Source: Methanobacteriota archaeon (GTDB lineage Archaea > Thermoplasmatota > Thermoplasmata > UBA10834). Taken from it: DNA of 64,000 bases. Positions 2-47,531 of the stretch are shown here, one piece after another. The stretch spans positions 2,802 to 66,801 of the forward strand of contig DYTN01000004.1 of the NCBI GenBank assembly GCA_020725925.1, written 5' to 3'. Position numbers and translations under genes: made by a program. A model generated the notes under the pieces. That model worked only from the letters and a program-made list of their open reading frames with translations. It was not told where the DNA came from and made no database searches. Position 1 is the first letter of the stretch; the number at the start of each line of letters is the position of its first letter.

Positions 2-220
2 GATGCTCCCCCCGAGAAGGTGTGCGAGCAGAAGAAGGAGGGGAAGGACGAGGCCGCCCCCGAAGACCTTGTGCTCGTGCGCGTGCTCGAGGACGTGCCC
101 ACGTTCGCTGGCGTCGACAAGGACTACAAGCTGAGGAAGGAGGACATCATCTCACTGCCCAGCAATGTAGCGAAGACGCTCGTCTCGCACGGCAAAGCCA
201 AAGTGATCGGCTCAGGCTAG
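2..220 (+). CDS. GINS subunit (Gins15/Gins51-like), C-terminal fragment; the CDS begins upstream of the window
   Basis: Frame 2 is open from nt 2. The C-terminal sequence LVLVRVLEDVPTFAGVDKDYKLRKEDIISLPSNVAKTLVSHGKAKVI matches the archaeal GINS B-domain pattern V.VLxDVPxFxGxDxxxYxLxKEDxxxLP, recalled from memory. Confidence 0.45.
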   Translation, partial: DAPPEKVCEQKKEGKDEAAPEDLVLVRVLEDVPTFAGVDKDYKLRKEDIISLPSNVAKTLVSHGKAKVIGSG

Positions 221-997
221 GTCGAACGGCCCGCTCATGCCCCCGTGCTCCGTCACTTCGACTCTCACAGGATGCTTGCGCCTGGCGAGGTTCTTCTCGA
301 CCGCCTTGCGGGCGATCTCAGGCATGTTGTTCTCTCTGCTCAGGTGGACGAGCACTACCTTTTTCGTCCTCTCCGTCGCGGCGGACCCTGACAGCTCGGC
401 CGCATCGTCGTTCGACAGATGCCCGTGGTCCCCCCTGATCGCTCGCTTCAGGAACTCCGGGTAGGTCCCGCGGAGGAGCATCTCCTCATCATAGTTCGCC
501 TCCACCAAGAGCATGTCCGCTCCAGCCATGTGCCTGACGACATCCGCGGTCACGCTTCCGAGGTCTGTGGCGATGCCCAGGCGCCTCGAGTCGAACGTCA
601 CGGAGAGCGCCACGGGCTCTGCGGCAAGATGTCTGACCTTGAACGGTTCGATCCTGAGCTCCCCGATGCGCACCTCCTTGCCCGATGCTATGGGTCTCGC
701 GTCCACGCCGTCAAGGGGCGTGAGCGCGAGCGTCCCCTTCGTGCCGTAGACGGGGACTGCGTAGTCGAGTGCGAACCTCCTCGCCCCTCGGACATGGTCG
801 GTATGTTCGTGCGTGAGCAGCACGGCCTCGACCTGCGTCGGCTCAGCGCCGAACACCGACATCCTCCGTTCCAGCTCTCGACATGACAGCCCTGCGTCGA
901 CCAGGAGACCCTTCCCCTCAGACATCACGAGTGCGGAGTTGCCGACGCTCCCGCTGCTCAGAATCGATACAGTGAGACGGTGCATCCAGCTCGCCAA
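212..997 (-). CDS. Metallo-beta-lactamase-fold hydrolase
   Basis: 261 aa with the HxHxDH motif (LLTHEHTDHVRG) and downstream His/Asp residues typical of MBL-fold enzymes. Confidence 0.6.
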   Translation of the reverse strand: MASWMHRLTVSILSSGSVGNSALVMSEGKGLLVDAGLSCRELERRMSVFGAEPTQVEAVLLTHEHTDHVRGARRFALDYAVPVYGTKGTLALTPLDGVDARPIASGKEVRIGELRIEPFKVRHLAAEPVALSVTFDSRRLGIATDLGSVTADVVRHMAGADMLLVEANYDEEMLLRGTYPEFLKRAIRGDHGHLSNDDAAELSGSAATERTKKVVLVHLSRENNMPEIARKAVEKNLARRKHPVRVEVTEHGGMSGPFDLA

Positions 998-2777: not shown

Positions 2778-4238
2778 GTGAGAACGATGGCAAGCTACGC
2801 GGACAAGTTCAAGGTCAAGACGAGATGCCAGCTGATGAGCACGGAGGACAAGAAGCTGATACACGAGTCGACGCTCGAGGTCATGGAGGACGTCGGCATC
2901 AAGATACACGGCAGGACTGCGCGCGCGGCTCTGGTGCGCGCGGGCGCGCACGCGGACGAGAAGGCGCAGGTCGTCAGGTTCCCGATAGGCGTTGTGAACT
3001 CGCTCGTGAGGAAGATACCCAGGACCTTCACGCTCGCGGGCCGTACACCTGAGTATGACCTGCCGCTGGACGGCACGCACAGCTATTTCACCACTGACGG
3101 CTGCGGCGTCGCCGTGTGGGAGCCGAAGACGAGGACGAGGAGAAGATCTCTGCTGGAGGACATCCGCAAGACGGCGATAGTCTCCGACTGGCTGCCGTAC
3201 GTGAGCATCTACGAACCTATGGTCGTCGCGCACGACGTCCCTGAGAAGGTGCACGTGGTCGAGGGCGTGAGGGTCGGGATGGAGAACACGTCGAAGCACA
3301 TACTGACCGAGTCGACCTCGAACCCTGACGAGGCTAGGACACAGGTGAGGATGGCGGCAGAGGTGGTTGGCTCGGTCGAGGAGCTGAAGAAGAGGCACTA
3401 CATCTCCGCGATGGTCTGCACCGTCTCACCGCTTGTGCTCGAAGGCCCAACGACAGAGGCGGCCATGGTGTGGGCGGAGAACCATGTCCCCGTTCACATC
3501 ACCGGGATGGCGCAGGCGGGGATGAGCGGCCCAGCCACGATCGCAGGAGACCTGGTGGTCAACCACGCAGAGACGCTGGCGCTCGCGTGCGCCATGCAGG
3601 CGCACGAGCCAGGTTCGCCCTTGATGTACGGCTCTGTGCTTTCCGCCATGGACCCGAGGAGCGGGGCGTACATAGGCGGGTCGCCCGAGAGCACGATCCT
3701 CTGCGCAGCAGCTGTCGAGATGGCTAACTTCTGCAAGATACCTAACTCGACAGGCGGACTGGGATCGAGCGCCAAGGTCCCGGGCGTGCAGGCCTCAATC
3801 GAGAACACCCTCTCGACGGCCGCGAGCATACTCGTCGGCGGCGAGGTCATAAACGGCCTCGGGGTCCCGGACGGCTCGACGCTGCTGTCTTACGAGCAGC
3901 TCCTGTTCGACCATGAGATCGCGGGCATGGCGCTCAGGGCCATGAGCGGTTTCGCGGTGAACGAGGAGACGCTCGCCGTGGATTTGATCAAGAGGATTGG
4001 GATCGGCGGCACCTATCTCGGCCAGAAGCACACGCTGGCGCACATCAGGGACTTCTACCTGCAGCTGATGTGGAAGACGGAATCCTTCGAGCAAGCAGTC
4101 CACAGGGGCGGCATGGACTCACTAGAGGCGGCTAACGAGCGCATTCAGGGGATACTGAAGGAGCACACGCCGGCGCCTCTCGACAAGGACATCGCGGGGC
4201 GGCTGAACCTGATTGTGAAGGACTTCTCGAAGGCATGA
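2778..4238 (+). CDS. MttB-superfamily methyltransferase paralog, non-pyrrolysine type
   Basis: 486 aa, collinear in organisation with the upstream paralog (LIHESTLEVMEDVGIKIHG at the N-terminus). The ORF is uninterrupted. Confidence 0.75.
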   Translation: MRTMASYADKFKVKTRCQLMSTEDKKLIHESTLEVMEDVGIKIHGRTARAALVRAGAHADEKAQVVRFPIGVVNSLVRKIPRTFTLAGRTPEYDLPLDGTHSYFTTDGCGVAVWEPKTRTRRRSLLEDIRKTAIVSDWLPYVSIYEPMVVAHDVPEKVHVVEGVRVGMENTSKHILTESTSNPDEARTQVRMAAEVVGSVEELKKRHYISAMVCTVSPLVLEGPTTEAAMVWAENHVPVHITGMAQAGMSGPATIAGDLVVNHAETLALACAMQAHEPGSPLMYGSVLSAMDPRSGAYIGGSPESTILCAAAVEMANFCKIPNSTGGLGSSAKVPGVQASIENTLSTAASILVGGEVINGLGVPDGSTLLSYEQLLFDHEIAGMALRAMSGFAVNEETLAVDLIKRIGIGGTYLGQKHTLAHIRDFYLQLMWKTESFEQAVHRGGMDSLEAANERIQGILKEHTPAPLDKDIAGRLNLIVKDFSKA

Positions 4239-4367
4239 CGTCCGCGGCCGAAACTATTTCCAATCGGATATTTTTATATAATTTACAGAATCGTCCAATC
4301 ACCGCACCTTGTCGGGCCATCCAGTCGCCGAAAACCCAGCCCTGAACGATCTCGTCTACCTCGATAG

Positions 4368-6512: not shown

Positions 6513-7157
6513 TCACGGTGTCATCCTGAGGGAGCGGAGTACCTCTATGCCCGATTCGGACAGCTGCGCCCTCACCTCGCCAGAGCTCAGTTCGGCCATG
6601 ACGAGCCCTTCCTTCCTGAGCTCTCTCAAGACCCTCTCCACTGCCAGCCTGCTCGTGGGCTTCAGCTTCTCCGCGAGCTTCGCGAGGGTCATCTGCCTGT
6701 CCCCGAGAGCCAGCATGAACCTGATCTGCGCCTGCGTGAACCTGTCCCTTGCTGTGGCGCCCCTCAGCACGGGCAGCTTCGTCACCCTTCCCTCGCAGTG
6801 GTAGGTCTCGACGCCCAGGCGGAACGCCGCCAATAGGGCCGCATCTCCCAGCAGCTTGCTGCCGCCGCTGATGTTGAGCACGACCGAGTTCGGCCTGCCC
6901 GGGGCGCGGGGGCGCATCAGATCCTGGAGGACTGATGCGACGGCGTCCGTCAGCTCCATGAACTCCAGCTCTCCGAGGGAGACCGCCTCCACGTCATGGC
7001 CAGCCATCTCTTCGAGCGCCTTGAGGCGCAGGAACGCATCGGTGTCCTCCGTCCCCTCAGCTCCGACGAGCACGAGCCTGTCGTAGGGCAACTTGGTCAT
7101 CGCGAGGATGATCTTCTCGCCGTCCCCGGGCCCGAAGGTGGAGACCAGGATCCTCAA
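6513..7157 (-). CDS. CARF-domain plus winged-HTH transcriptional regulator (Csa3-like)
   Basis: N-terminal Rossmann-like domain with the CARF signature [DN]x[ST]xxx[RK] (NISGGSK). C-terminal wHTH (QIRFMLALGDRQMTLAKLAEKLKPTSRLAVERVLRELRKEGLV). Paralogous to the adjacent gene. Confidence 0.5.
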   Translation of the reverse strand: MRILVSTFGPGDGEKIILAMTKLPYDRLVLVGAEGTEDTDAFLRLKALEEMAGHDVEAVSLGELEFMELTDAVASVLQDLMRPRAPGRPNSVVLNISGGSKLLGDAALLAAFRLGVETYHCEGRVTKLPVLRGATARDRFTQAQIRFMLALGDRQMTLAKLAEKLKPTSRLAVERVLRELRKEGLVMAELSSGEVRAQLSESGIEVLRSLRMTP

Positions 7158-7837
7158 GCGTCATCACCGAGCAGCAGCTCCGTGGACTCCTCGACGGTGA
7201 CGACCTTCTTCCTTGAGTCGGTCGGATGTGCGTCCAGCCTCACAGCACCTTTCGCCACCAGGTTCTTGATATGGTGGTTCACCGTGGCCTTGTGCTTGCC
7301 CACGAGCTTGGAGAGGTCAATCTCGGTCAGCTTCCTGGACCTGTTCCTCAGGAGGGTCCTGAGTATCTCCCTCTCCTCGCCCGACAGGACCTGGCTGTAC
7401 TCCATGCGGAGGAGCGGTAGAGGGATCTCCTCGTAGGTCACGTCATGGACGTAGACTGTTGGCACGCCCTCGAGGATGCATGCGAGGAGCGCCGCGGAGG
7501 AGGTCGGCCTCGTGCCTCCGGCGATGTTGAACACGGATATCTTCTTGCCTTCCCTCTTGTGTCTCCTTATGTCGCCCCTGATCCTGGTCGCGATGCTCTT
7601 GAAGTCGAACGGGTCCTCGAGGTCCACGGCATCCACCGCCAGCTTCATGCTCCTGCAGTAGTCAAGGACGGCCTTCCTCGCCTCGGCGACATTCCTGACG
7701 GCCTCTGGGTCGGCCCTGTCCGCGCCGCAGTAGAAGACTACCTTCTCCACGTTCGCTGTCGACCTGATCGTCGGGATGAGGGACTTCGGGCGGAACCCGA
7801 GCGTGCCGAACACAACCACCATATCTCGCACCAGCAC
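7154..7837 (-). CDS. CARF-domain plus winged-HTH transcriptional regulator (Csa3-like), paralog
   Basis: N-terminus MVVVFGTLGFRPKSL resembles the Csa3 N-terminus (xTLGFxE). It has a CARF-like NIAGGTR motif and a C-terminal wHTH (EREILRTLLRNRSRKLTEIDLSKLVGKHKATVNHHIKNLVAKGAV). It overlaps the downstream paralog by 4 nt. Confidence 0.5.
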   Translation of the reverse strand: MLVRDMVVVFGTLGFRPKSLIPTIRSTANVEKVVFYCGADRADPEAVRNVAEARKAVLDYCRSMKLAVDAVDLEDPFDFKSIATRIRGDIRRHKREGKKISVFNIAGGTRPTSSAALLACILEGVPTVYVHDVTYEEIPLPLLRMEYSQVLSGEEREILRTLLRNRSRKLTEIDLSKLVGKHKATVNHHIKNLVAKGAVRLDAHPTDSRKKVVTVEESTELLLGDDA

Positions 7838-7982
7838 ATGATTCGCGGGGGCCTAGGTCTGCTTTCTGTGATACCGTAAGAATCATTGTCATACAAATAT
7901 TTAATTGAGGGTCGAGCCCAGGCAGTATCGGAATCCGTGAGACGGTCTGCGGTTCCGATGAATAGACGTTGCAGCGCTCCAA

Positions 7983-13599: not shown

Positions 13600-16500
13600 C
13601 TACAGCCTAGAGAGATCCTCTTCCTCTGCCGGCTTCTTCTTCTGAGGCCGCTGCTCCTTCGAACGCCTTCTGGGCCGCTCCTCCGCCTCCTCGCGCTCCT
13701 CTTCCTCGGGCTCTTCCTCGGGTTCCCGCCCACGCTCGCGCCTGCGCTCCCTGGTCTCCTCGACCGCCTTTAGGGGCGTGTTGCACCTCGGGCACCTATC
13801 CGACCCCCGCACGCACTCCTTGCACAGGATGGCCTTGCACTTCTGGCATCTCGCTACCGCGATCCCGCCATGGAACAGGCATCTCCTGCCGACGAGGTCA
13901 GAAGGCACCTCCTTCTCCTTGCGCTCCTCCTCCCTGGGGAGCCTCTGCTTGGGCGCTCGCTCGCGGGGCCTCTCCCTGAAGGCCTCGACCTCCCTGCTGT
14001 ACCTGGGCCTGACCCTCGGCGGCTCCTCCTCCACTTCCTCCTCGTACTCCGAAGGCATCGGAGGAGCTCTCCTGTGCGGCTCCCTCGGCTCCTCCCTGTA
14101 GGCCTCCTCCCGCGGAGGCCGCTCGCGCCTCATCGCCCTTTCATCATACGGCATGTACTGCCCGTAGCCCTCGCTCACGATGGATTTCAGCGAGACAGTC
14201 GGGGACTCGTACCCTGCGCCCTCGAAGGTCTGCAGGATGGTCGTGAGCTGTCTCGCCCAGTAGGCCCCGATCCCCAGGTTGCGGATCAGGCCCAGCACGT
14301 TCTTCTGGTCGTTCGGTATCTCGAGGGCCTGCCTGAGCAGCGCCTCTGTCTGCGGGTCGGTGGACTTCGTGCTGAACTCGTGGTTGTCGACGGCCTGGAT
14401 GTAGCTCAGGATCTTCTTCGCGCTCGAGATCTTCAGCTCAGGGAAGTTGACCGTGATGTCGCACAGCCTGAGCCCGTGCGCCGCGAGGTCCCGCTTCTCC
14501 ATGGCGTTCACGAGCACCTCCCGGGACATCTTCTCGTACCTGTCGAACTCCTCCTTGCTCATGCCCGACAGGCTGATCTCCGCCTTGCCGCTCAGGAAGT
14601 CCATGACGTCGCCCAGGAAAGCGTACGGTATGCCGCAGACCCTGAAGGCCTCCTCCTTGGTGACGGGCCTGCCGTTGGAGTACTCGAAATCGAGCACCGA
14701 CCTCGCGTAGTCCTCTATCTTGCTCTTCCGGATGTCCGCCTCTGCCTGCTTCCGCCCCTCCGTCGCCGCCTCGAAGTACGGGTCGATGCTGAGCGCGTGG
14801 TCGAAGCACCTGAGGGCCTGCTCCGGCCGGTTGAGCGTGAGCAGTACCTGGGCCTTGCTCTTCCAGGCCTCTTTGTCGTTGGAGTCGAGGCCTATCGCCC
14901 TGTCGTACGAACTCACGGCTTCCTCGAACAATCCTTGCTTCTCCATCGCGTAGCCCTTGCTCATCCAGATCTTCGAGTTGGAGCTGTCGATGTCGAGGGC
15001 CTTGTCGAAGCAGTTGTTGGCGTCCTGGAACCTGTTGACTTCCAGGTGCAGGAGCCCGAGCCTGTACCAAGCCGCCTGGTCCGTCTGGTCGGCTTCTAGG
15101 GCCTTCATGTAGGACTTGATGGCCTCCTCCTTGTTCCCCGTGGCCTCGAACGCCTTCGCCCTGCTCTTCCACATGTCCTTGTCGTTCGAGCCCAGCCTGA
15201 TGGCCTCATCGAACGAGCCCAACGCTTCAGAGACCCTGTTGAGCTTCAGCAGGGCCATGCCCATGTACTTGAAGGTGGAGACGTCGTTCGGCGAGAGCCT
15301 CCTGGCCTCGTTGAACGAGCCGATGCTGTCCTCGAACCTGCCCATGGCTGCGAGCGCGCGCCCCTCGTTGGTGTGGAACTCAGCCGCGTTGGGGAGTATC
15401 TTGATGGCCTTCTTGAAGTCCGAGAGGGACTCCTCGAACCGCCTGAGCTCGAGGTACGCCCTGCCCCTGTTGTTCAACACGAACGGCTGGCTCGAGTCCA
15501 ACTTGATGGCGTGCTCGAACGACTCCGCGGCCTGGGCAGGGTTCCCGGCGGCGAGGAGCAGCAGCCCCTTCCTGTTCAGCAGGAATATGTCCTTCGGGTC
15601 CAGGACCAGAGCGCTCTCGTAGCTCCTGAGGGCCTCGTCGCTCCTCCCGAGCTTCTCGAGGGCGCTCGCGCGGTCGGAGAGCGCGTTCTTATTCTTCGGG
15701 CTGATCCGGAGTATCTGGTCGGTGACATGGATGACGCTCTCAGGCTCGTCCAAAGCGATGAGCGCGAGCTTCTTGAGCTCGAGCGTGTCGAGGTCGTCTG
15801 TGTGATGCTCAAGGGCCTTGTTGAAGCAGGCGAGCGCCTCGTTCGGGCGCTTCAGGAACAGGGAAGCGCTGCCCTTGTCCAGGAGCGCCTCTCGGTCCTT
15901 CGGGGAGACCTGAAGGATCTCGTTGCAGACGGCTGTGACCTCCTCGTTGCGCTTCAGGGACTTGAGCAGGTCCTTCTTCGCGTTGAGCACGGGGATGTTC
16001 TTGGCGGAGATCCTGAGCGCCTCGTCGTACGCCCTCAGGGCCTCCTCCATCCTGCCGAGCTTCGTGAGTATCTGGCCCTCCTTGATCCTCAGCTCGGACG
16101 AGGCCACGTTGAGCCGGACGGCCTCCCTGATGGATGTGAGGGCCTCGTCCCTGCGCTCGAGCCACTCGAGCGCGAGCGTTCTCTGGAGCCAGATATCCGG
16201 GTCCCTCGGGTCAACCTTGAGCGCGCGGTCGAAGGAGACGAGCGCCTGCTCGTACCTCTTCAGCTCTATCAGCGCCTTGCCCATGGTCGTGTACGCCAGC
16301 TTGTCGCTCGGGTCCAGCTCGACGGCCTTCGCGTACGAGCTCACCGCCTCGTCGTATTCCTTGCCTCTGAAGGCCGCCTCGCCCCTCACGCGCCAGAGCG
16401 CGATGCTGTTCGGGGCGGCATGCAGGCCCTGTTTGGCGTAGTCAAGGGCCTCCTTCGGCTTGCCCACCCTGAGGAACATGGACGATACGTTGTAGTAGAC

Positions 16501-18060
16501 TTCGGGGTTGCTAGGATCGTGCTTCAGCGCGAGCCTGTACGCCGCGAGGCTGTCGTCGAACCTCTCAAGCCTGTCCAGGGCGACGGCCTTGTCGAAGTGC
16601 GCCGCCTTGTTCTTCTCGTCCGCGGCGATGATCCTGTCGCATGTGTGGATGACGTCGGCATCCTTCTGCAGCTGCTTGTAGGCCTCCTTGAGGCTCTCGA
16701 GCATCGGGAGCTGGTCCGGGGCGCTCTTGAGTGCCTTCTCGAAGGTCTTGACCGCGTCATGCGGCTTCGCGGACTTCATCTGGGCAACGCCCTTGTCGTG
16801 CATGGCCACGAGGTCGTTGGGATCGAGGTCCAGGATTCTGTTGCACACTGCTATGACCTCGCCGTGCCTCTGTAGCTTGATCAGGCAGTCCTTCTTGAGG
16901 AACAGCGAGTCCTTGGATTTCGGGGACAGGTTGAGCGCAGCGTCTGCGAATGTAAGTGCCTCGCCATGCCTGCCCAGCGCTGCCAGCGCCTTCGCCTTGT
17001 CCAGAAGAGTTTCGTGGTCCTGAGGGCTGAGAAGGAGTATCCTGTCGCATGTCGCGGCAACGTCCTCGTGCCTCCCCGACTTCTGGAGGGTCTTCTTCCT
17101 GTTCACGAGCACGTTGAGGTCGTTCGGATCGATCCTGAGGGCCCTGTCAAAGGATTCGAGGGCCCTGTCGTGCATGCCTAGCTCCTCCTGCACAACCCCC
17201 AGCTCGTTCCAGACGATCTTGTTGCCGTGGTCTATCTCCGCCGCTTTGGAGAAGCACTCGAGCGCCTCTTGTGGTCTGCCGAGCTTGTGAAGAATGCGGC
17301 CCATGTTGTCAAGGCAGTACGCGTCGTTCGGGTCCACCTTGAGGGCGGCACCGAGCGACTGCACGGCCTCCTCCCTCTTGCCCGCGAGGTTCTGTGAGGT
17401 CGCTTTTGCTATCCAGAGGTCCTTGTCCTTGGGCTTGAGCTGTATGGCCGCCTGGAACGTGCGCGTGGCGTCGTCATGTCGCTGCAGGCGCGTGAGCGCG
17501 AGCCCCTTCTTTCGTATCATCTCGACATCGCTGGGCGTGTGCGCGAGTATGCCGTCGTAGTGTATGATCCCGTCCGGGTTGATCTCGATGGCCTTCCCGT
17601 AGCTGTCGACCGCGTTCGTGATTTCACCCGCGACGTCGTACGCCTCCCCGAGTGCGTGCCAAAGCATCTCAGCCTGAGGGACTAAGGCGACGGCCTTCTT
17701 CAAGGAGCTGATCGCCTCCTGGGTCATGCCTAGCCTGAGCGCGGCCCGTCCCTCGACCCCCATCGCCTCCGCGTTGTCACTATTCAGCTGGAGGGCGACC
17801 TTGGCGGCATCCTGGGCCATCTGCGCGCGGTCGAATGTGAGGTACTTCGCCCCGAGGGCGGAGAATATCTGGGAGAACTCCACCCTCATCTTGCCGATGA
17901 AGAGCATGTTCTCCTTGAGCATGTTGCTGGTCTTGTCGAGCTCGGCGAGGGCCTCCTTGGGCCTGCCGCCGCGCTCGAGCGAGTCGACTTTGGCCAGTTC
18001 CTTCTTGGTCTTCTCGAGGAGCTTCTTCTCCTTGTTCAGCAGAGCATCGAACAATCCCAA
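13600..18060 (-). CDS. Giant TPR-repeat protein (1486 aa) with a C-terminal Cys zinc ribbon and a highly charged Glu/Arg-rich tail
   Basis: More than 30 tandem 34-residue TPR-like units (W/L-G-Y-A-F-P pattern) over about 1000 aa. Then a non-repeat region, a zinc ribbon CLFHGGIAVARCQKCKAILCKECVRGSDRCPRCN, and an ERRRERGREPEEEPEEEEREE tail. Confidence 0.75.
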   Translation of the reverse strand: MGLFDALLNKEKKLLEKTKKELAKVDSLERGGRPKEALAELDKTSNMLKENMLFIGKMRVEFSQIFSALGAKYLTFDRAQMAQDAAKVALQLNSDNAEAMGVEGRAALRLGMTQEAISSLKKAVALVPQAEMLWHALGEAYDVAGEITNAVDSYGKAIEINPDGIIHYDGILAHTPSDVEMIRKKGLALTRLQRHDDATRTFQAAIQLKPKDKDLWIAKATSQNLAGKREEAVQSLGAALKVDPNDAYCLDNMGRILHKLGRPQEALECFSKAAEIDHGNKIVWNELGVVQEELGMHDRALESFDRALRIDPNDLNVLVNRKKTLQKSGRHEDVAATCDRILLLSPQDHETLLDKAKALAALGRHGEALTFADAALNLSPKSKDSLFLKKDCLIKLQRHGEVIAVCNRILDLDPNDLVAMHDKGVAQMKSAKPHDAVKTFEKALKSAPDQLPMLESLKEAYKQLQKDADVIHTCDRIIAADEKNKAAHFDKAVALDRLERFDDSLAAYRLALKHDPSNPEVYYNVSSMFLRVGKPKEALDYAKQGLHAAPNSIALWRVRGEAAFRGKEYDEAVSSYAKAVELDPSDKLAYTTMGKALIELKRYEQALVSFDRALKVDPRDPDIWLQRTLALEWLERRDEALTSIREAVRLNVASSELRIKEGQILTKLGRMEEALRAYDEALRISAKNIPVLNAKKDLLKSLKRNEEVTAVCNEILQVSPKDREALLDKGSASLFLKRPNEALACFNKALEHHTDDLDTLELKKLALIALDEPESVIHVTDQILRISPKNKNALSDRASALEKLGRSDEALRSYESALVLDPKDIFLLNRKGLLLLAAGNPAQAAESFEHAIKLDSSQPFVLNNRGRAYLELRRFEESLSDFKKAIKILPNAAEFHTNEGRALAAMGRFEDSIGSFNEARRLSPNDVSTFKYMGMALLKLNRVSEALGSFDEAIRLGSNDKDMWKSRAKAFEATGNKEEAIKSYMKALEADQTDQAAWYRLGLLHLEVNRFQDANNCFDKALDIDSSNSKIWMSKGYAMEKQGLFEEAVSSYDRAIGLDSNDKEAWKSKAQVLLTLNRPEQALRCFDHALSIDPYFEAATEGRKQAEADIRKSKIEDYARSVLDFEYSNGRPVTKEEAFRVCGIPYAFLGDVMDFLSGKAEISLSGMSKEEFDRYEKMSREVLVNAMEKRDLAAHGLRLCDITVNFPELKISSAKKILSYIQAVDNHEFSTKSTDPQTEALLRQALEIPNDQKNVLGLIRNLGIGAYWARQLTTILQTFEGAGYESPTVSLKSIVSEGYGQYMPYDERAMRRERPPREEAYREEPREPHRRAPPMPSEYEEEVEEEPPRVRPRYSREVEAFRERPRERAPKQRLPREEERKEKEVPSDLVGRRCLFHGGIAVARCQKCKAILCKECVRGSDRCPRCNTPLKAVEETRERRRERGREPEEEPEEEEREEAEERPRRRSKEQRPQKKKPAEEEDLSRL

Positions 18061-18870: not shown

Positions 18871-18982
18871 TGCAGGTGCCGGGATTCGAACCCGGGCCGT
18901 TGGCTTTCGTCCCTCTCCATTTTATCTTCTTTCAACGGAGCGGCTGGAAGGCCAAGATCCTAACCAGCTAGATTACACCTGC
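18871..18982 (-). tRNA. tRNA-Gly (anticodon UCC) with an intron of about 40 nt (roughly 18905-18944) adjacent to the anticodon loop; no encoded CCA
   Basis: The reverse-complement strand folds. Acceptor GCAGGTG/CACCTGC. D-arm ATCT-AGCTGGTTA-GGAT. Anticodon stem TTGGC/GCCAA with loop CTTCCA(G) and anticodon TCC. T-arm CCGGG-TTCGAAT-CCCGG. Discriminator A. Confidence 0.75.
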
Positions 18983-20551: not shown

Positions 20552-21553
20552 TTAAGCGACAAAAGCCGATGCCTTGTCCTTCCACCGACCAACGTATTCC
20601 GCAAACATATGCTCGCTGCTCTTGAAAAGGGAGACCGGTCTCCCTCTCTCTACTGAGAAGACGCCAATTTCAGCCATCTGTGAAGCTCGAGATAGGACTT
20701 TGCTCTGTGGTTTGGGCTTGATTCCGTAGAGTCTGTGCTGATACTCTGAGAGATCCTTGTCGCTCATCCCGAGTCTTCTGTCTGCGAAATATGACGGGAG
20801 ATAGTTTGAGTTTGTCAGTCTTATGAAGGGCGTTATGTGTGTAAAATGAAGGAGATCAGCCATATATGCATGACCCTTCAGAATCGATTCAGACAATACG
20901 GTTGCATAAAGGTCCTCCAAGCTGCTGTCTTCCTTCAACTTCCTCGCACCGATCTCTCCGAAAACGTACTGCCCATCTTCCTTCTTCAGAATCTCCAATT
21001 CCACAAGGAACCTCAGGTACTGATTGACCTTGGTCTTGGATCTCCTTCCGTGAACGAAATCTGAAGCCTTGACAGTGTTTCTCATAACCACATTCGTTAC
21101 TATCTCATAGAGCGGGTTCATCTGATTCCGGATCTGATACAGCCTAAGGAATCGGCCGCCAATCACGCCCAGTAGTGCTCCTTCAGAACTGCTTCTGAAG
21201 CTGCCGAACTTAGATTCGATTCGCTCCGCAACGAACTTGCGATTTGGCAAGTCCAAATGCCAGCCGCCTTCGTCATGATCCACCTTGGTCTCGAAGACAT
21301 CCCTGAAGGGAGTGAACCTGACCTTGAAGAATCCTTCAGACGCGTCCCAGAGGTGTTGCTCTTTGACCGTCCCAAATGAATACACTTCCTCATTTCTGGC
21401 AGATGGCAATTCAGATAGAAAGAAGGACGTCCCCATGGTCCTGCGAACCAATGCCTCCACTTCGCGGGTGGAAACCTTCTGAGTGGTTAGAGGAATCCTG
21501 ATTATTTCGGACTCAGCTTTCGAGTTAGTCATGGTTCGCACCCATAATCCCAT
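20552..21553 (-). CDS. Hypothetical 333-aa protein, downstream partner of the C39-like peptidase
   Basis: ATG-initiated ORF overlapping the 3' end of the peptidase gene by 29 nt, which suggests translational coupling. Low GC. No recognised domain. Confidence 0.5.
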   Translation of the reverse strand: MGLWVRTMTNSKAESEIIRIPLTTQKVSTREVEALVRRTMGTSFFLSELPSARNEEVYSFGTVKEQHLWDASEGFFKVRFTPFRDVFETKVDHDEGGWHLDLPNRKFVAERIESKFGSFRSSSEGALLGVIGGRFLRLYQIRNQMNPLYEIVTNVVMRNTVKASDFVHGRRSKTKVNQYLRFLVELEILKKEDGQYVFGEIGARKLKEDSSLEDLYATVLSESILKGHAYMADLLHFTHITPFIRLTNSNYLPSYFADRRLGMSDKDLSEYQHRLYGIKPKPQSKVLSRASQMAEIGVFSVERGRPVSLFKSSEHMFAEYVGRWKDKASAFVA

Positions 21554-22175
21554 ACTTGTCTAGTGGTCCAGCAGGTCTCTGAACCCACATCACCCAGCGG
21601 GTCTCTTTACCCTCATCCCAGTATTTCAGCATTCTCACATCGGGGAGTGAGTTCTTGAAGCTTATTGCTCTACTCATATGTCCGGCAAATGGTTTGTAGG
21701 GGTCATGAAACCATACCATGCCGTCTTCAATCGCAACGACAACGAGGACATGATCCAGAATCATGCCTTCGAGATTGACCGGTTGCTGAGTGTGGTATTC
21801 AGGGCTTACGCCGACAATTGGATAAGATGCTGCCTCATCTTCGATTATTGATTTCAGCATCTGGAGCGTATTTCCACGATCTGCCTTCTCGAATACCCTG
21901 AAGGGGCTCCGCTTCTTGGCCAGATGGCTGTTGATGCTGGGAGTGACCGTCCCAATGGCACACCCTACTCCCTTTACATAGCCACATAGCTCATGCATGG
22001 TGCTCATCTTGATTCTCAACTCAGGAGATCCGGTCCTGGTCGCCAGGTCATCAAAGATATTCTTGAGGCAGGTCGGCCAACAAGTGTCTTTCAGATGCTG
22101 GACTTGCCATTTTGATGTCAGAAGTTCGAACTCAATATCATCCATTGTACCAGGCCTTGATTGATTTGCGAGCAT
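21525..22175 (-). CDS. Papain-like (C39-like) cysteine peptidase
   Basis: Gln/Cys-Trp catalytic motif QHLKDTCWPTC and His motif DHVLVVVAIEDGMVWFHDP (HxVVV...DP, as in the peptidase C39 family). The ORF is open to 22223, where the ORF track calls a TTG start; the first in-frame ATG (MLANQ) is at 22175. Confidence 0.45.
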   Translation of the reverse strand: MLANQSRPGTMDDIEFELLTSKWQVQHLKDTCWPTCLKNIFDDLATRTGSPELRIKMSTMHELCGYVKGVGCAIGTVTPSINSHLAKKRSPFRVFEKADRGNTLQMLKSIIEDEAASYPIVGVSPEYHTQQPVNLEGMILDHVLVVVAIEDGMVWFHDPYKPFAGHMSRAISFKNSLPDVRMLKYWDEGKETRWVMWVQRPAGPLDKYGIMGANHD

Positions 22176-22838
22176 TCCCCCAGATGCAGAGTTGATTATG
22201 CTGCATGTACCTCTCCTAGGCAACTACGCAGCAATCGAGTACTATCAGATAAATCCTTCCTGTGCCTGGATGAGGTGCATCGCGACAGAAACGCACCATT
22301 CAACAACTCATGCTTGACGATGAACTCACATAACTGCCTGAGACACTTGCGGGGTTCACATTCTGATGCATATGAACCGGGCTTCATCGAGACTTCTTTG
22401 CCTGCAGAGATGATGTTCTGATTCTGAACTCGTAGGCGGTCTGGCAGGCATCAAACGCTTGGAGCCTTACACTGTTCAAAACAAGACTCGGGCCTCGGAA
22501 AAGACCTCTATGATGAAGTGTCCCCTGCGCCTGGTCTGAATCGATGTTGTCGTTCTTCTTGGTTTGCCTCCGGTCGGGTTTCAGTCTGATTGGAGTTCGG
22601 ACATGCCTCCATTTGCGGTTTTCCCGTGATATGGCCACTTCGTCCATTGTCAGGGATCATCCCCAATCCCTACGTCGCACTCATTGCGTGCAGGAAGAAG
22701 ACCGGGGTCCAATCCTTGACTGCGACGTGAGGTCTCTGGAACCGAGCATAGCATGGCCTCTCGCTTATTCGTAGTTTCGCCTCTTGACGCAGGCGAAGAC
22801 CCTCTTCCACATACCATCCTTGTGGGCATTCTCGGAAA

Positions 22839-23573
22839 TTGAATACGATGAAGGTCGCGTTTCGCGAAATGCATATAAATGAATCAGCACATAACTTGGT
22901 CATGACATTCAAGATTAGTCCGAAGTACGATGCCGACTATCTGAAGGGAGATTCTGATATCGACAAGAAGTTGGACGTTTTTGAGGATCGTACGAAAGGA
23001 TGGACCCTTGAATGGGCCAAGAGACTCAGCGAGACTGAGCACGCTGGCTTCGCCGCGCTTGCTATAGCTCTCACTTACTTTGAAGCTCATGCTATCTACT
23101 ATAAGGGTGAGAGTTCAAATCCCAATAAATCGAAACAATTCTTCCGCGATGCATTCATTGATGTTTATGGGCATCATGTTCTTGGGATGGACCTGGCTGG
23201 CCGAATTGCAGATAATGTGTATGACCAAGGACGTTGCGGACTCTTCCACGAGGGAATGACAAAGGCAAAATTGCTGTTGAGGGATGATAACGGATCTGTG
23301 ACCTACTCCGAGGATTTCAACACTCATGAGCTTGTTGAGATATCGATAAATGTTCAAGAGTTCGTAAAGGAAATCGAGGCACATTTCCAAGAATACATGC
23401 AGAGACTACGAAAAAGCAGTGAAGTGACGTTGCGCAGGGATTTCGAGAGGTCATGGGACCGGGACTATCAACTCTCCATTCAGGCTTTGAGACAAGGCAC
23501 ACCGACGGAGGCGGTCCCAAGCACTCCACCGAATCCGGCTGCATCAGGTTCTCATTTGAGAGGGAACCCATAG
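22839..23573 (+). CDS. Hypothetical 244-aa protein with a possible HEPN-like Rx4H motif
   Basis: QGRCGLFHEG contains R-x4-H. There is no other motif. Low GC. Confidence 0.4.
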   Translation: MNTMKVAFREMHINESAHNLVMTFKISPKYDADYLKGDSDIDKKLDVFEDRTKGWTLEWAKRLSETEHAGFAALAIALTYFEAHAIYYKGESSNPNKSKQFFRDAFIDVYGHHVLGMDLAGRIADNVYDQGRCGLFHEGMTKAKLLLRDDNGSVTYSEDFNTHELVEISINVQEFVKEIEAHFQEYMQRLRKSSEVTLRRDFERSWDRDYQLSIQALRQGTPTEAVPSTPPNPAASGSHLRGNP

Positions 23574-23664: not shown

Positions 23665-24966
23665 TTACTGTGGGGCTGGATTGCCCACAATTGATGCCTC
23701 GATTTGGCGAATCATTTCATCGCGAGATTGAATTTGATCCTTCAGGCACTTGCACAAGGCCTCTCGAGTAATCTCCTCCATGGCCGACGTTTGAGCCATA
23801 AGCTTGCTCTGGTCAAGATTTCTGGCGCCATGCAAGAGAAGTCCTCGTGCACGGTAAGCCTCCTTGACGGTGGCACGAATCTTCTTTCTTTCGACCGGTT
23901 CGGTCCCCAGGAAGTGAGCGATTCTCAGGCTGAGTCTATATGCGAACTCTCCGAATTCGACATCCTCTCCGAACAGCGATTCACAGGCAATCCAGTAATC
24001 AACCAAGGCTTCGTCCGGCCGTGGCCTGTCCACTGCATCACAGAATCTCTGAAGAGCCACCTTCCAGAAGGGAGGCTGTTTTTCTGCAATCTGTTCTACT
24101 AGCTTCCAGTAATGCCTAAGTCTAGGCAGACTCTGACTTTGGAGTGTGTAAGGTCTGCCAACTATTCTCCGTCGTGGGTAGGCAGTGCCTACGCGAACCG
24201 ACATGCCAGTCCAGCTCAGTGGTCGGCACCAGATAGTATCAAACCCTACTGACCCCGTCTCAGTCAACTTCATGATAGCTACGAACCACCAAAAGCAGTC
24301 TTGGTGCGTCTGTGTGAGTGCTGGGAAACCCCGCTTGACGACTGCTGTCATTTCAAGCACGAATCTCAGATGCCCGAATGGGAAGATTCTCGCTAGCGAA
24401 TCAGAGTCTGCTGCGATGCCATTGTACACAGCAAACTCATCAGCGTTCAACTTGCGAATGTTGAAAGGACCGACACGCTCCATGTCTGCTTCCATGGCGA
24501 AGTTGGCAAGCGGAGCTGAGAGGAGGTACTCGTCTTCCTCGCTGTTTAGGTAGTCTTCGAATGACTTGTAGTTCGATTCAAACTCTGCTTCCTTGAACTC
24601 GACGCCATCTTGCATGATTAGCTGGCGCGTAATCATTGGCTGGAGAATGTTGTATGCAAATGCCATGGGAACTACAGACGCTCCTTTGTCTTTGAGCAGA
24701 CTTGCTATGCTGCCGTGCCGAAGGAGGCCATTGGTCAAGGCTTCATTGGTCTTGTCATTGACGAAATCCAACGCAGTCGTTGCAGCAAGCAGTCGAAAGT
24801 CAGGCTTCGATTCTGACCCTACTGAAAAGGAACCATCCTTGCCAAACTCCACCTTGGGAACAAGCCTCTGTGGGAGTCCTCCTCTTCGGAGCACCGAGTC
24901 CCTAAGGACGCTCATGTAGCGAACAGTGAGGTCCTTGAGGGCGTTATACAAGATCTGATCTCGCAT
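23665..24966 (-). CDS. HEPN-domain abortive-infection-like protein (Abi/Apea-like)
   Basis: The C-terminal region YRLSLRIAHFLG ... KEAYRARGLLLHGARN contains the canonical HEPN Rx4-6H motif. Size is 433 aa. It lies in the low-GC island. Confidence 0.5.
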   Translation of the reverse strand: MRDQILYNALKDLTVRYMSVLRDSVLRRGGLPQRLVPKVEFGKDGSFSVGSESKPDFRLLAATTALDFVNDKTNEALTNGLLRHGSIASLLKDKGASVVPMAFAYNILQPMITRQLIMQDGVEFKEAEFESNYKSFEDYLNSEEDEYLLSAPLANFAMEADMERVGPFNIRKLNADEFAVYNGIAADSDSLARIFPFGHLRFVLEMTAVVKRGFPALTQTHQDCFWWFVAIMKLTETGSVGFDTIWCRPLSWTGMSVRVGTAYPRRRIVGRPYTLQSQSLPRLRHYWKLVEQIAEKQPPFWKVALQRFCDAVDRPRPDEALVDYWIACESLFGEDVEFGEFAYRLSLRIAHFLGTEPVERKKIRATVKEAYRARGLLLHGARNLDQSKLMAQTSAMEEITREALCKCLKDQIQSRDEMIRQIEASIVGNPAPQ

Positions 24967-27027: not shown

Positions 27028-28563
27028 TTATGAAGAGTGCTCAGATAGCCTCGACTGTTTCTCCCTCTTCGCCAGCGGCTGTTTCTTCGCCTTTGGAGCT
27101 TGTGTGAATGTGGGATTGGTCTCCCTTGATGATACTGAATCAGGGCACTCAACCTTCTTGCCCTTCAATAGGTCTTCTATCGTAAGTAGCTGGATTCTCG
27201 GGTACTTCGGATTCCCAAGTTCTTTTGAAGTATAGAATCCCGCATCGGCGGCTTCAGAACGCATCTGTGGGGTGGGCTCGTTCAGACTGATCAACACGCC
27301 AATTGCAGCCTTCTCACGATCCACGACTCCATGTAGGTCTCTGACGTGGGCTGATGTTACATTGCCGGCCTTCACCGAGAATATGATTTGCTCCGACTTG
27401 GACCTCTCCACGAAGAAGTATAGGCGGCCGTCGATTCCCTTGTCAGCGCCCTTCTTCTGCTCGACGGGTCTAGCGCCTACTAGTCCGAGAGCCCACCATT
27501 GGAATTGGTATGGGTCTTGCTGGGCCAGTGCCTGCGCATCAGGTAGCGATACTGGTTCCCCAATCACCGTGTAGGATACCGTCTCTCCAAAAGCATCCTT
27601 GAGGCGATGTCTCATGAGTGTGATCGCAAGATGGGTGATATCAATTCCAATCCACTGTCTCCTCAGACGCTGGGCAACAGCAATTGTGGTCCCACAACCG
27701 CAGAACGGATCAAGCACCAAATCGCCCTCATTGCTACTCGTCGAGATAATCCGCTCAAGTAGACTTTCGGGCTTCTGAGTGGGATACCCAAGCCTCTCCT
27801 TCTTTGAGCCTGCAATGATTGATAATTCCCACACATCTCTCCGAGGCATGCCCCGAGTCTCCGCCTCCAACGTTATCTTCCTTGTTCCAGTCTCTGGGTC
27901 CAGCATCTGTGTCTTACCCTTGAACCTCTTCCAGTAGCTCTCGCTGACTGGTTCGTAGTCGACATTAAAGGTAATCGTTTGATTCGGGTCTCTCACATAG
28001 AAGAGAATCACGTCGTGCATGCGCTGATACATCTTCGAAGGCGTCGGCCACCTCCGATAGCTCCAGATGATTTCATTCTTGAAACAAGCTGGACTAAAGA
28101 CGGCATCCATAAGAATCTTGAGATGATGGCTTGCCGTTGGATCGCAATGCAGGTATATCGTCCCAGCTTGCTTGAGGACTCTCTTCATCTCGATTAGTCG
28201 GGGCGCCATCATTGATAGATAGGCGAGCATGTCGTTTGACCTGAGGATTCTTCTAAAAGCCTCCATTGTGTCTGCAAGCCTGCCGCCAAATGTGAGTGCA
28301 TCTTCGAATGCTTTGGCAGCTGCTTGGTCCCAATGCCAGGTGTCCTCAAAGGCCATGATTTGGGCTGCGGAACTGCTTCCATTGTGTTCCTTGAAAAGTA
28401 CGTTGTAATCTTGACCACTCTGAAAAGGTGGGTCAAGATAGATCAGATCAACGGTCTCGTCCTTGATGTACCGCTTGAGAATGTCGAGGTTGTCTCCGTA
28501 ATAGAGCATGTTTTCGGCTTTCCCTTCTGGCGTGTCCATCGTGTGGGAAATGGCTATTTGCAT
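27028..28563 (-). CDS. Beta-class N6-adenine/N4-cytosine DNA methyltransferase fused to a C-terminal Mrr-like restriction-endonuclease domain
   Basis: Motif IV DPPF (IYLDPPFQSGQDYN) precedes motif I (VLDPFCGCGTTIAVAQRL), which is the beta-class order. The C-terminal 150 aa carry KGADKGIDGRLYFF ... IIFSVKAGN, resembling the Mrr catalytic core (GIDG ... QxK-like). Confidence 0.7.
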   Translation of the reverse strand: MQIAISHTMDTPEGKAENMLYYGDNLDILKRYIKDETVDLIYLDPPFQSGQDYNVLFKEHNGSSSAAQIMAFEDTWHWDQAAAKAFEDALTFGGRLADTMEAFRRILRSNDMLAYLSMMAPRLIEMKRVLKQAGTIYLHCDPTASHHLKILMDAVFSPACFKNEIIWSYRRWPTPSKMYQRMHDVILFYVRDPNQTITFNVDYEPVSESYWKRFKGKTQMLDPETGTRKITLEAETRGMPRRDVWELSIIAGSKKERLGYPTQKPESLLERIISTSSNEGDLVLDPFCGCGTTIAVAQRLRRQWIGIDITHLAITLMRHRLKDAFGETVSYTVIGEPVSLPDAQALAQQDPYQFQWWALGLVGARPVEQKKGADKGIDGRLYFFVERSKSEQIIFSVKAGNVTSAHVRDLHGVVDREKAAIGVLISLNEPTPQMRSEAADAGFYTSKELGNPKYPRIQLLTIEDLLKGKKVECPDSVSSRETNPTFTQAPKAKKQPLAKREKQSRLSEHSS

Positions 28564-29933: not shown

Positions 29934-30737
29934 ATGGAAATAACCAAACAAGCAAGAATCGAAATGGAATCAAAGAAACTCGCAATGAAGATTCGGAATG
30001 TGAAGAGCGAACTTCCTGATATTCACTCGCTTCAGAGCCCGCTACACAAGTCACTGTGGGCACTCGCGGCAGCTAAGGAGGCAGGGGAGGACAGACCTCT
30101 GACATCGCAGAGAATGAGGATTCTTCTCGAGGTGTTCGATGTGGCAATCACGGACAGTCAGATCACAAACGCCCTGTCCAGATCCGGGGACAAGATCATC
30201 AGGAAGAATCGCGATGGAGTGCGAGGATACAAGATTGCCTTCACCGGTAAGACAGCTCTCATGAATACCGCTGGTGGGGAAGGTATCGAGGTGATATATG
30301 CAGAACCCGGCAACCGATGGAAGGCGCGAAGGCAATTGAGTGAACTTGCTGGCTCATTGAAGGGAGACCTTCTAGCTGTCGACAAGTATTATGGAGAGAG
30401 GACCCTGTACACACTCGAAACTCTAGCTAATCGCAAAGAGAATGTGCGATTCATTACATCCCATACAAGAGAGAATGCGCAGAAGCTCTCTGCGCTCTTT
30501 GGAGACCTCATGAATGCCAAGCCGAACTTGGAGGTTAGATTGTATTCCGGGAAGCATGACCTGCATGATAGGTACATCCTGTCAGACGATGCTCTTGTAC
30601 TGGTTGGTCACGGCCTCAAGGATTTGGGAGCGAGCGAGTCGTTCGTTGTTCGACTTGACACCAGGGTTGTCGGTGAACTCATGTCGCTTGTACGATGTAG
30701 TTTTGAAGATCGTTGGAGCAAATCGACTCCCATTTAG
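29934..30737 (+). CDS. Hypothetical 267-aa protein with an N-terminal wHTH-like region and a possibly divergent PLD-like (HxK to HxR) C-terminal motif
   Basis: C-terminal SGKHDLHDRYILSDDALVLVGHGLKD loosely resembles the HxKx4Dx6GSxN phospholipase-D/nuclease motif, with Arg in place of Lys and GHG in place of GSxN. The N-terminal region resembles the two small upstream proteins. Confidence 0.35.
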   Translation: MEITKQARIEMESKKLAMKIRNVKSELPDIHSLQSPLHKSLWALAAAKEAGEDRPLTSQRMRILLEVFDVAITDSQITNALSRSGDKIIRKNRDGVRGYKIAFTGKTALMNTAGGEGIEVIYAEPGNRWKARRQLSELAGSLKGDLLAVDKYYGERTLYTLETLANRKENVRFITSHTRENAQKLSALFGDLMNAKPNLEVRLYSGKHDLHDRYILSDDALVLVGHGLKDLGASESFVVRLDTRVVGELMSLVRCSFEDRWSKSTPI

Positions 30738-30866: not shown

Positions 30867-31264
30867 AGAAAATGACACGGAAAGGAATTGTTCCCTTCGA
30901 CTTCTTCGTATTCTAGTTATGGTGCGGTCGACCAATCCGCTTTCGATTGCAGCGGCAATCTTCCTGCGGCGCATGAATCTAGGGGTTGGTCGATTATCTC
31001 GTGTCCTAGACCTCTGCAACGATTCTAGCGCGCTAATCGGGGCCTCCCTCAGCCTTCGAACAGATCAAGCCAGTGTCTCAAGAAATGAGGGAAAAACTGC
31101 AATTTACATGAACGGTCAAAGGGGCTTATGTCCTTCACCTGGCACATTCTTGACATACTGGCTTCGTACCTCCCATAAAGGTTAATATGGGACGGCATCG
31201 TTGGTGGCGCTCACGAACAGAGCAAGGTTCCAGATCGACATTCTTATCAGAGCCAGGGGGAAGC

Positions 31265-33228: not shown

Positions 33229-33248
33229 AGTCGTCACTTGTCCCTCTG

Positions 33249-35119: not shown

Positions 35120-35120
35120 A

Positions 35121-36101: not shown

Positions 36102-36104
36102 GCG

Positions 36105-47465: not shown

Positions 47466-47531
47466 GCCGGATTTGAACCGACGGTCACGTGGTCCCGAAC
47501 CACGGATCATACCAAGCTAGACCACTACCCC
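47458..47531 (-). tRNA. tRNA-Pro (anticodon CGG), 74 nt, no encoded CCA
   Basis: The reverse-complement strand folds. Acceptor GGGGTAG/CTACCCC. Anticodon stem CGTGG/CCACG with loop TTCGGGA and anticodon CGG. T-arm GTCGG-TTCAAAT-CCGGC. Discriminator A. The D-stem has one mismatch and a 9-nt loop. Confidence 0.65.

Follow-up and report, generated by a model that had tools for sequence, protein, structure and literature searches.

Domains of the CARF type are, to our knowledge, known almost only as receivers of the cyclic-oligoadenylate alarms of type III CRISPR systems, and the locus described here raises the question of what such proteins do where no CRISPR locus is in view. It lies in a 64,000-nucleotide stretch of DNA (the window; all coordinates below are its own) from a Methanobacteriota archaeon (GTDB lineage Archaea; Thermoplasmatota; Thermoplasmata; UBA10834; assembly GCA_020725925.1, contig DYTN01000004.1). 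A first-pass annotation made from the sequence alone had noticed in it two adjacent genes, here called A and B, for proteins that combine an N-terminal CARF domain with a winged helix-turn-helix (wHTH) domain at the C-terminus. The reading that we prefer, with a probability of roughly 0.6, is that A and B are an autoregulated, vertically inherited pair of CARF-wHTH regulators that act together under the influence of a CARF ligand. The subfamilies of A and B are already catalogued by PADLOC as CARF3 'CARF' proteins (PDLC01853 and PDLC01856), in name only. We came across no account of the A-B tandem, of its housekeeping synteny throughout the class or of its operator, and the obligately coupled tandem, the strong asymmetry of constraint between its members and the conserved, putatively autoregulatory operator all appear to be undescribed.

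Two open reading frames (ORFs) of about 220 aa each were found on the minus strand, as annotated. B occupies 6513..7157 (214 aa, TTG start) and its protein reads MRILVSTFGPGD...NISGGSK..., and the ORF of A is open up to a GTG at 7837 (7154-7837, 227 aa; ...VFGTLGF...NIAGGTR...). The annotation had let A begin at this GTG. Its start is almost certainly ATG 7822 instead, because nearly all homologues have 222 aa and a Shine-Dalgarno-like GGTG (7829..7832, minus strand) stands 6 nt before that ATG; the upstream alignment shows GGTGA, GGCGA or GGAGA at the matching position of the orthologous loci. A is accordingly assigned to 7154..7822 (222 aa, stop TGA at 7154-7156). The two genes overlap by 4 nt (TTGA, 7154-7157), with the start TTG of B at 7157 lying within the stop TGA of A. 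Each protein has an identical counterpart in a public collection (E 4e-139 for A, 7e-128 for B), and the listed relatives of each number well over 100, indicating that both are genuine genes. Identity among the listed relatives was 73-89% for A (222 aa) and 46-59% for B. The two had been called paralogues. A relationship was indeed detected, both by BLASTP (37% identity across 57 aa around the GG loop, E 3e-5) and by profile-profile comparison with hhalign (87% probability, E 4e-6, 18% identity over 170 columns), but these comparisons place A and B as remote paralogues only.

A matched the PADLOC CARF3 profile PDLC01853 with 296.7 bits (E 2e-89; residues 1-219 aligned to all 209 positions of the profile), and B matched the CARF3 profile PDLC01856 with 126 bits (E 4e-37); the label CARF3 is taken from the PADLOC profile names. 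Both also matched the PADLOC Csa3 profile PDLC01044 (56 bits for A, 41 bits for B), and A exceeded the cut-off of Pfam PF09651, Cas_APE2256 (32.4 versus 24.8 bits). The scores of A and B stayed under the cut-offs of TIGR01884, the NCBIfam Csa3 (cas_HTH) model (37.0 and 21.1 bits; cut-off 60.2), PF22662 Csa3_N (20.2 and 25.1 bits; cut-off 27) and PF19810 HFX_2341_N (25.4 and 23.8 bits; gathering score 30). Since the Csa3 models score under their cut-offs, A and B are, on profile evidence, not Csa3 in the strict sense. Several winged-helix Pfam families gave sub-threshold matches in both proteins, including MarR/HTH_24 in A. Sequence and profile searches of the PDB returned only marginal CARF matches (Cami1 8phj, E 0.005-0.04; Card1, E 0.09) and generic MarR matches, so that a fold search was needed. 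AlphaFold (AF2) models built from alignments of 40 and 41 sequences reached a mean predicted local distance difference test (pLDDT) confidence of 83 for A and 93 for B. Foldseek against the PDB gave as top full-length matches for both models Csa3 of S. solfataricus (2wte, 6wxq, 6w11; E 4e-8 for A, 3e-9 for B), in alignments of 227-237 columns that span both domains; MarR/MepR were also matched, and the C-terminal halves aligned to MarR-type winged helices and repressors. Other CARF proteins ranked after Csa3, namely Cam1, Crn1/Sis0811, Csm6, Can2, Card1 and Cad1. These profile and model comparisons support A and B as CARF-wHTH proteins of the CARF3 (Csa3-like) clade and bear out both the Csa3-like CARF N-terminus and the C-terminal winged helix of the first-pass annotation.

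The domains can be placed on the minus strand as follows. The CARF domain of A (7433..7822, approximately residues 1-130) is modelled as a beta-alpha Rossmann-like repeat, with motif 1, T7-L8-G9-F10 (7793-7804), after beta-1 and motif 2, I100-A-G-G-T-R105 (7508-7525), after beta-4. Its wHTH domain (7157..7390, approximately residues 145-222) is placed by MarR-family Foldseek and PDB matches and contains the predicted recognition helix K-H-K-A-T-V-N-H-H (residues 176-184). In B, the AF2 model places the CARF domain at 6774..7157 (approximately residues 1-128), and sequence alignment identifies the equivalent of motif 2 as I96-S-G-G-S-K101 (6855-6872); the wHTH domain (6516..6752, approximately residues 136-214) was assigned from the AF2 secondary structure and from AdcR/ZitR/MarR-type PDB sequence matches. 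The Csa3 pocket motifs, T-h-G-F after beta-1 and L-x2-G-h-R after beta-4, are present in A and partly in B, which has T7-F8-G9-P10, without Phe, at the motif-1 position. The motif positions of A map to Gly9-Phe10 and Gly96/Arg98 of Csa3a, which contact cyclic tetra-adenylate (cA4) (PMC8699464). The FGTLGF that had been singled out contains motif 1 of A. The general CARF signature that had been read in both proteins, [DN]x[ST]xxx[RK], is broken in A by the Ala at the third position of NIAGGTR, but the same segment fits Csa3 motif 2, Leu-x2-Gly-h-Arg (PMC8699464).

The closest relatives of both proteins come from metagenome-assembled genomes (MAGs) of Thermoplasmata. A scan of one genome per species yielded 49 loci, all in Thermoplasmata MAGs, in which A was 70-82% identical in a close clade of 27, 52-57% in three deeper lineages and 42-48% in 19 Methanomassiliicoccales. 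Three complete chromosomes (OY970070.1, OY968769.1 and OW818644.1) are among these 49 genomes. Wherever the downstream sequence continues, a B-type gene directly follows A, in 49/49 loci and in the window. In the tally of junctions, the genes overlap by 4 nt in 27 rows and by 1 nt (TGATG) in 9, and 1-4 nt separate them in 10; this tally includes the window and two duplicate loci, and its remaining values include artefacts of the ORF-start script. In the close clade, the order KBL-TDH-MBL-HAD stands divergent from A-B, which is convergent with a GPN-loop GTPase gene. In the Methanomassiliicoccales, the upstream neighbour is a CBS protein, a C25 peptidase-PKD giant or PEP synthase and the downstream one an HDAC-like deacetylase, so the pairing persists through a complete turnover of the flanking genes between the orders. 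No relatives of the pair were found in a scan of viral contigs, and in none of 52 related loci is there a CRISPR-like array at a distance of 10 kb or less from the pair. A search of 1.84 billion representative proteins gave 131 clusters at E <= 1e-3, about 40 of which are full-length A-like proteins, mostly with TLGF-like and N-x-[ST]-GG-T-K-like motifs; by this sequence search the A-like family is small, yet it reaches past the 49 genomes. Because of the conserved synteny, the identity gradient, the lack of nearby arrays and the lack of viral copies, the pair has the pattern of a vertically inherited core gene unit and not of a mobile defence accessory. It would have been passed down as a unit since before the split of the Methanomassiliicoccales from the other sampled Thermoplasmata. 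The high identity of A in the close clade (42-57% in the deeper lineages), its housekeeping setting and its constant association with a fast-evolving paralogue argue for a CARF signalling role within normal cell physiology.

The two genes are constrained very differently. When positions identical in at least 98% of the sequences were counted in the 49 orthologous pairs, A had 43 such positions, including both pocket motifs and the recognition helix, and B had five (M1, G98, G99, A111 and G115). In A, G6-T7-L8-G9 and F98-N-I-A-G-G-T104 are invariant, as are K178, A179, T180, N182 and H184 of its recognition helix K178-A-T-x-N-x-H184, and the 43 positions also include S108 and H126-D127; F, Y or H occurs at position 10, and R or K at position 105. 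In motif 2 of B only GG is invariant across the orders, and Lys101 is missing in one branch of the Methanomassiliicoccales (GGLW in L046-L052). The presumed recognition helix of B is degenerate and contains proline in the Methanomassiliicoccaceae. Within the close clade B keeps the GG-S/T-K loop and the helix, with R175 and R178 invariant. By these counts A is strongly constrained and B is fast-evolving, and B has the look of a partner that is retained in structure but dependent in function. This apparent dependence of B, together with the translational coupling of the two genes, is our main, though indirect, argument for a joint complex. The strongly conserved C-terminus of A (...ELLLGDD) overlaps a GGTGA Shine-Dalgarno-like sequence for B (cttGGTGAtgac; window 7154-7175 and the orthologous loci), and conservation at the protein level there may therefore partly reflect a signal for translational coupling.

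Upstream of A, phylogenetic footprinting with a consensus from 42 orthologous loci revealed a candidate operator, TGTATGACAATGATTCTTACGGTATCAC (7868..7895, minus strand), of the form GTATGA-N14-GTATCA. Box 1, GTATGA, lies at 7889-7894 and box 2, GTATCA, at 7869-7874, with an inverted half TCTTAC at 7876-7881. In the close clade as in the Methanomassiliicoccales, two direct GTATnA boxes, spaced by 20 bp, flank an inverted TAATAC-like half; the consensus is ATAnTnGTaTnAnnATaaaTcTtAccGTATcA in the former and aATaGTATtA...TAATAccGTATTAA in the latter. The conserved form in both orders is GTATnA-N14-GTATyA, with box 2 at -50 to -54 from the ATG of A, and the remaining intergenic sequence around it is unalignable. 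A further scan detected the element in the other close-clade loci as well, and L030-L033 have variant forms of it. With a position weight matrix (PWM) built without the window, the site at 7868-7895 scored 35.0 bits, as against a maximum of 9.4 +/- 3.1 (highest 19.9) in block-wise Markov simulations (n=100). Since the element is kept with A-B where the divergent neighbour changes, these comparisons assign it to A-B and not to the HAD gene. In L031-33 an altered recognition helix of A, VTKATMNYH, occurs together with altered boxes, GGTTCA / GGTCTA, a covariation that is suggestive of A as the reader of the boxes.

Directly upstream of box 1 lies a TATA-box-like element, TTAAATAT (7897..7904, minus strand), and TTTAATAT/TTTAATAA is conserved at the same place in the close clade. 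It is taken as a putative TATA box because it resembles the archaeal consensus, and its position would put the transcription start near box 2. Archaeal repressors usually act from sites that abut the TATA box or cover the transcription start. With box 1 abutting the TATA-like element and box 2 over the predicted start, if the TATA assignment is right, negative autoregulation is thus inferred.

Taken in order, the preferred mechanism would run as follows. A and B would form one operon of two CARF-wHTH transcription regulators, in which A, as the constrained subunit, keeps the Csa3-type nucleotide-pocket motifs (T-L-G-F; G-G-T-R/K). A would recognise GTAT(G/T/C)A boxes that adjoin the TATA-like box and cover the transcription start predicted for its own operon, and the pair would autoregulate, most likely by repression. 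The 4-nt start/stop overlap would tie the synthesis of B to that of A, and B would most likely reside in one complex with A, either in an A:B heterodimer or in mixed dimers bound to the multi-box operator. A ligand in the CARF pocket would shift the affinity for DNA, as in Csa3a, in which cA4 drives a repositioning of the wHTH domain (PMC8699464). By analogy, our default guess for the ligand is cA4 or a related adenylate. The predicted operator offers an immediate handle for binding and reporter assays.

Several points weigh against this mechanism. The case for contact between A and B is drawn from pairing, coupling and constraint, and CARF proteins are normally homodimers; the neighbouring Csa3a and Csa3b of S. 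solfataricus act separately (PMC8699464). The covariation of helix and boxes is a single event in one clade, and box variants with GTCT are seen beside the canonical helix too. Since the GTAT boxes share part of their length with AT-rich promoter sequence, some of the footprint could be core promoter and not operator. The sign of regulation depends on assignments of the TATA box and transcription start that follow from the consensus. The PWM scan found no second operator site above the null in the 64-kb window, and no regulon is therefore defined here. Finally, the survey for arrays covered the window and 10 kb around the pair, which leaves room for a role in trans with a distal type III system.

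The next best PWM site in the window, 4267-4294 (16.4 bits), does not exceed the null and is an AT-rich tRNA promoter region. Some close-clade loci carry a second, inverted copy of the operator towards the divergent HAD gene, at about 22 bits in L011 (9850-9877) and L015 (9852-9879); the equivalent in the window, 7924-7951 (AGTATCGGAATCCGTGAGACGGTCTGCG), is weak (0.6 bits). In the Methanomassiliicoccaceae (L034-L045), an element GTATTAC-N17-ATAC-N7-GTATTAC is conserved 2-3 kb downstream of A-B (e.g. L040 7330-7400 and L035 8150-8210), between a DUF6951 gene and the gene of a secreted 664-aa protein that is followed by a FecCD-type permease gene. Because these GTATTAC boxes resemble the A-B operator, the operon of the secreted protein and the FecCD-type ABC transporter is a candidate member of the regulon.

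The closest characterised relatives of A and B are Csa3a and Csa3b of Saccharolobus/Sulfolobus. The architecture is common to all four proteins, with an N-terminal CARF and a C-terminal MarR-like wHTH domain in about 210-220 aa, and Csa3a/Csa3b (PDB 2wte, 6w11, 6wxq) are the best full-length structural match of both A and B. A keeps the T-h-G-F and L-x2-G-h-R motifs that contact cA4 (PMC8699464), two paralogues are likewise encoded close together, and the Csa3a operator adjoins the B recognition element (BRE) and TATA box. However, A and B are only 15-17% identical to these proteins and show no association with type I-A cas genes or with arrays. The csa3a and csa3b genes are split by a CRISPR array and are independent, whereas the A and B genes are always paired and usually overlap. 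B moreover has no Phe in motif 1, and in some lineages it is degenerate.

This likeness leads to the alternative that A and B are two independent homodimeric regulators in the manner of Csa3a/Csa3b, that is, co-transcribed paralogues with their own pockets and their own DNA targets. Characterised CARF-wHTH proteins such as Csa3a and MM_0565 are dimers of a single gene product (PMC8699464, PMC7465815), and Csa3a and Csa3b are neighbours in S. solfataricus with different operators (PMC8699464). MM_0565 of Methanosarcina mazei is a euryarchaeal CARF-wHTH protein that forms dimers, binds to DNA and affects transcription globally (PMC7465815); it differs from A/B in being a single gene at a type I-B CRISPR locus, and it is set beside them by description only. 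The loop and helix with R175/R178 that B retains in the close clade would also suit a regulator that works on its own. Independent proteins do not readily account for adjacency in 49/49 genomes, mostly with a start/stop overlap, despite the turnover of the flanks, and a B protein without the basic pocket residue (L046-52) and with a degenerate helix is hard to square with an autonomous sensor that is always retained. We therefore consider two independent homodimers possible but doubtful.

Next, the pair could play an ordinary Csa3 role in trans: a type III CRISPR-Cas system at another genomic site would make cA4 or cyclic hexa-adenylate (cA6), which the pair would sense in order to regulate cas or repair genes. 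If so, A and B would be ordinary Csa3-type regulators in an unusual location. A does keep the equivalents of the Csa3a contacts to cA4 (Gly9-Phe10; Gly-x-Arg), and many homologues carry the JGI label 'CRISPR locus-related DNA-binding protein', which is an automatic annotation. The closest functional precedent is HFX_2341 of Haloferax mediterranei, a chromosomal, vertically inherited and CRISPR-unlinked protein with a Csa3-like CARF and a DNA-binding domain, which also occurs in CRISPR-less Halobacterium; it is a global repressor, especially of transport genes, and, from a position 178 kb from the nearest array, it represses cas genes when over-expressed (PMC11434293). A-B is likewise vertically inherited, chromosomal and unlinked to nearby CRISPR. 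HFX_2341 is a single 308-aa gene of Halobacteria, in contrast to A and B, which have 214-222 aa, belong to Thermoplasmata and score under the PF19810 cut-off. Precomputed PF19810 matches exist on many homologues of A and B, and for this reason A/B and PF19810 are regarded as neighbouring families. According to the 2014 CARF survey, every CARF family has members unlinked to CRISPR-Cas (PMC4012209).

The genomic surroundings speak for a pair that is separate from CRISPR-Cas loci. Tandem-repeat, direct-repeat and custom spacer-repeat scans of the 64-kb window detected no CRISPR array, and no cas gene, Cas10 or CD-NTase was present among the window ORFs annotated by Pfam or PADLOC; many shorter ORFs were unscanned. 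The same two absences had been claimed by the first-pass annotation, and they hold within these limits, some ORFs of a low-GC island at 19-47 kb having no assignment. Several ORFs of this island (e.g. 20552-21553, 21525-22223, 22839-23573 and 23665-24966) gave no convincing family match. The island was considered as a hidden generator of cyclic oligoadenylates or of a cyclic-oligonucleotide-based anti-phage signalling system (CBASS) and was rejected, since its annotated ORFs encode a methylase-Mrr fusion, an integrase, a PDC-S05-like protein and haem-pathway enzymes, with a few ORFs unassigned. An identity of 70-82% in 27 close-clade genomes with housekeeping synteny is the pattern of a core gene and not of a patchy, mobile CRISPR accessory; no array or cas gene was found in the annotated window or beside the pair in related genomes, and the Csa3-specific models stay under threshold. 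On this evidence an ordinary Csa3 role in trans is rather unlikely.

A bolder proposal goes beyond the autoregulated pair that we prefer. A and B would be an obligate heterodimeric CARF sensor, in which A provides an intact half-pocket and the DNA specificity and B a degenerate half, and the asymmetric pocket would read an endogenous, non-CRISPR, nucleotide-derived signal. The pair would then act as a class-wide housekeeping second-messenger switch in Thermoplasmata and Methanomassiliicoccales, with a regulon that includes, for example, the FecCD-type ABC operon. A conceptual analogy is offered by Can1 (PDB 6sce), a Foldseek match of A, which has two CARF domains in one chain and forms its cyclic-oligoadenylate pocket from two non-identical CARF domains, as an A:B heterodimer would. 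Can1 differs in being a single-chain nuclease effector of type III systems and not a pair of transcription factors. If the heterodimer is true, it would provide a natural asymmetric CARF pocket made from two separate proteins, and, should the ligand turn out to be no product of CRISPR, the pair would be a route to an unrecognised archaeal second messenger. As a whole, we hold this proposal to be speculative and unlikely.

It is also very unlikely that A and B are ring nucleases of the Crn1 type, i.e. CARF-wHTH enzymes that degrade cyclic oligoadenylates and are not regulators. The ring nucleases Sis0811 and Sso1393 were among the Foldseek matches (E 5e-5 for A, 7.5e-7 for B), but Csa3 outranks ring nucleases in both fold searches. 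CARF7 profiles reached at most 32 bits for A (versus 297 for CARF3) and gave no match for B (versus 126 for CARF3), and the invariance of the recognition helix and the conservation of the operator point to sequence-specific binding of DNA. A non-CARF Rossmann-like ligand-binding family (TrmB sugar-binding, DprA-like or other), which the first-pass annotation had named as the outcome that would overturn it, is effectively refuted by the Foldseek and PADLOC CARF3 results: Pfam Csa3_N and HFX_2341_N do stay under their gathering cut-offs for both proteins, but the profiles, including PF09651 above its cut-off for A, assign the N-terminal domain to CARF, its top Foldseek matches are all CARF proteins, and the only TrmB matches are weak and located in the wHTH part.

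The rest of the window, in which selected ORFs were annotated, belongs to a high-GC archaeon (approximately 62% GC). It contains three tRNA genes, two of which are long enough for introns (102 and 112 nt) and were both missed by ARAGORN. The ORFs annotated by Pfam and PADLOC encode two MttB-family methyltransferases, a GPN-loop GTPase, a HAD hydrolase, a metallo-beta-lactamase (MBL)/RMMBL nuclease, a threonine-dehydrogenase-like protein, an aminotransferase, giants with TPR and CARDB domains, a haem/sirohaem cluster, the methylase-Mrr fusion, an integrase, HMG-CoA synthase, thiolase, histidine ammonia-lyase, TldD/PmbA and a Hel308-like helicase.

The low-GC stretch (18871-47531; 49-58% versus approximately 62% GC) is bounded by an apparently intron-containing tRNA gene (18871-18982, minus strand) and by tRNA-Pro(CGG) (47458-47531, minus strand), whose end is overlapped by 8 nt by a tyrosine integrase gene (46521-47465, plus strand). 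It also carries the gene of an N6/N4 DNA methylase with a fused Mrr-like nuclease domain (27028-28563, minus strand) and a PDC-S05-like candidate defence protein (29934-30737, plus strand; 41 bits), and is probably an integrated element. Inside it lies a tetrapyrrole cluster of intermediate GC (31187-40971), with a radical SAM/SPASM protein (31187-32293), an AsnC/NirDL-like protein (32773-33228), GluTR, ALAD, GSA aminotransferase, PBG deaminase, UroIII synthase and a second radical SAM/SPASM protein (39799-40971). This cluster resembles the alternative (sirohaem-dependent) haem pathway.

Two giant proteins are encoded on the minus strand. One is a TPR-repeat protein of 1486 aa (13600-18060), in whose gene the repeat finder detected internal DNA repeats, and the other has 1502 aa (55563-60071) and only CARDB and prokaryotic RING-finger matches, near its C-terminus; BLASTP detected no similarity between the two. 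In the wider neighbourhood of the pair, an MBL-fold hydrolase (window 212-997; also L001 12441-13211, on a 646-kb contig) gave a weak match to the Anti-Pycsar protein Apyc1 (23.8 bits; cut-off 50). Apyc1-type enzymes degrade cyclic nucleotides; this hydrolase probably belongs to the generic MBL enzymes. The two MttB-superfamily methyltransferase genes, which lie next to each other (1218-2684 and 2778-4238, plus strand), matched PF06253 with 286 and 280 bits.

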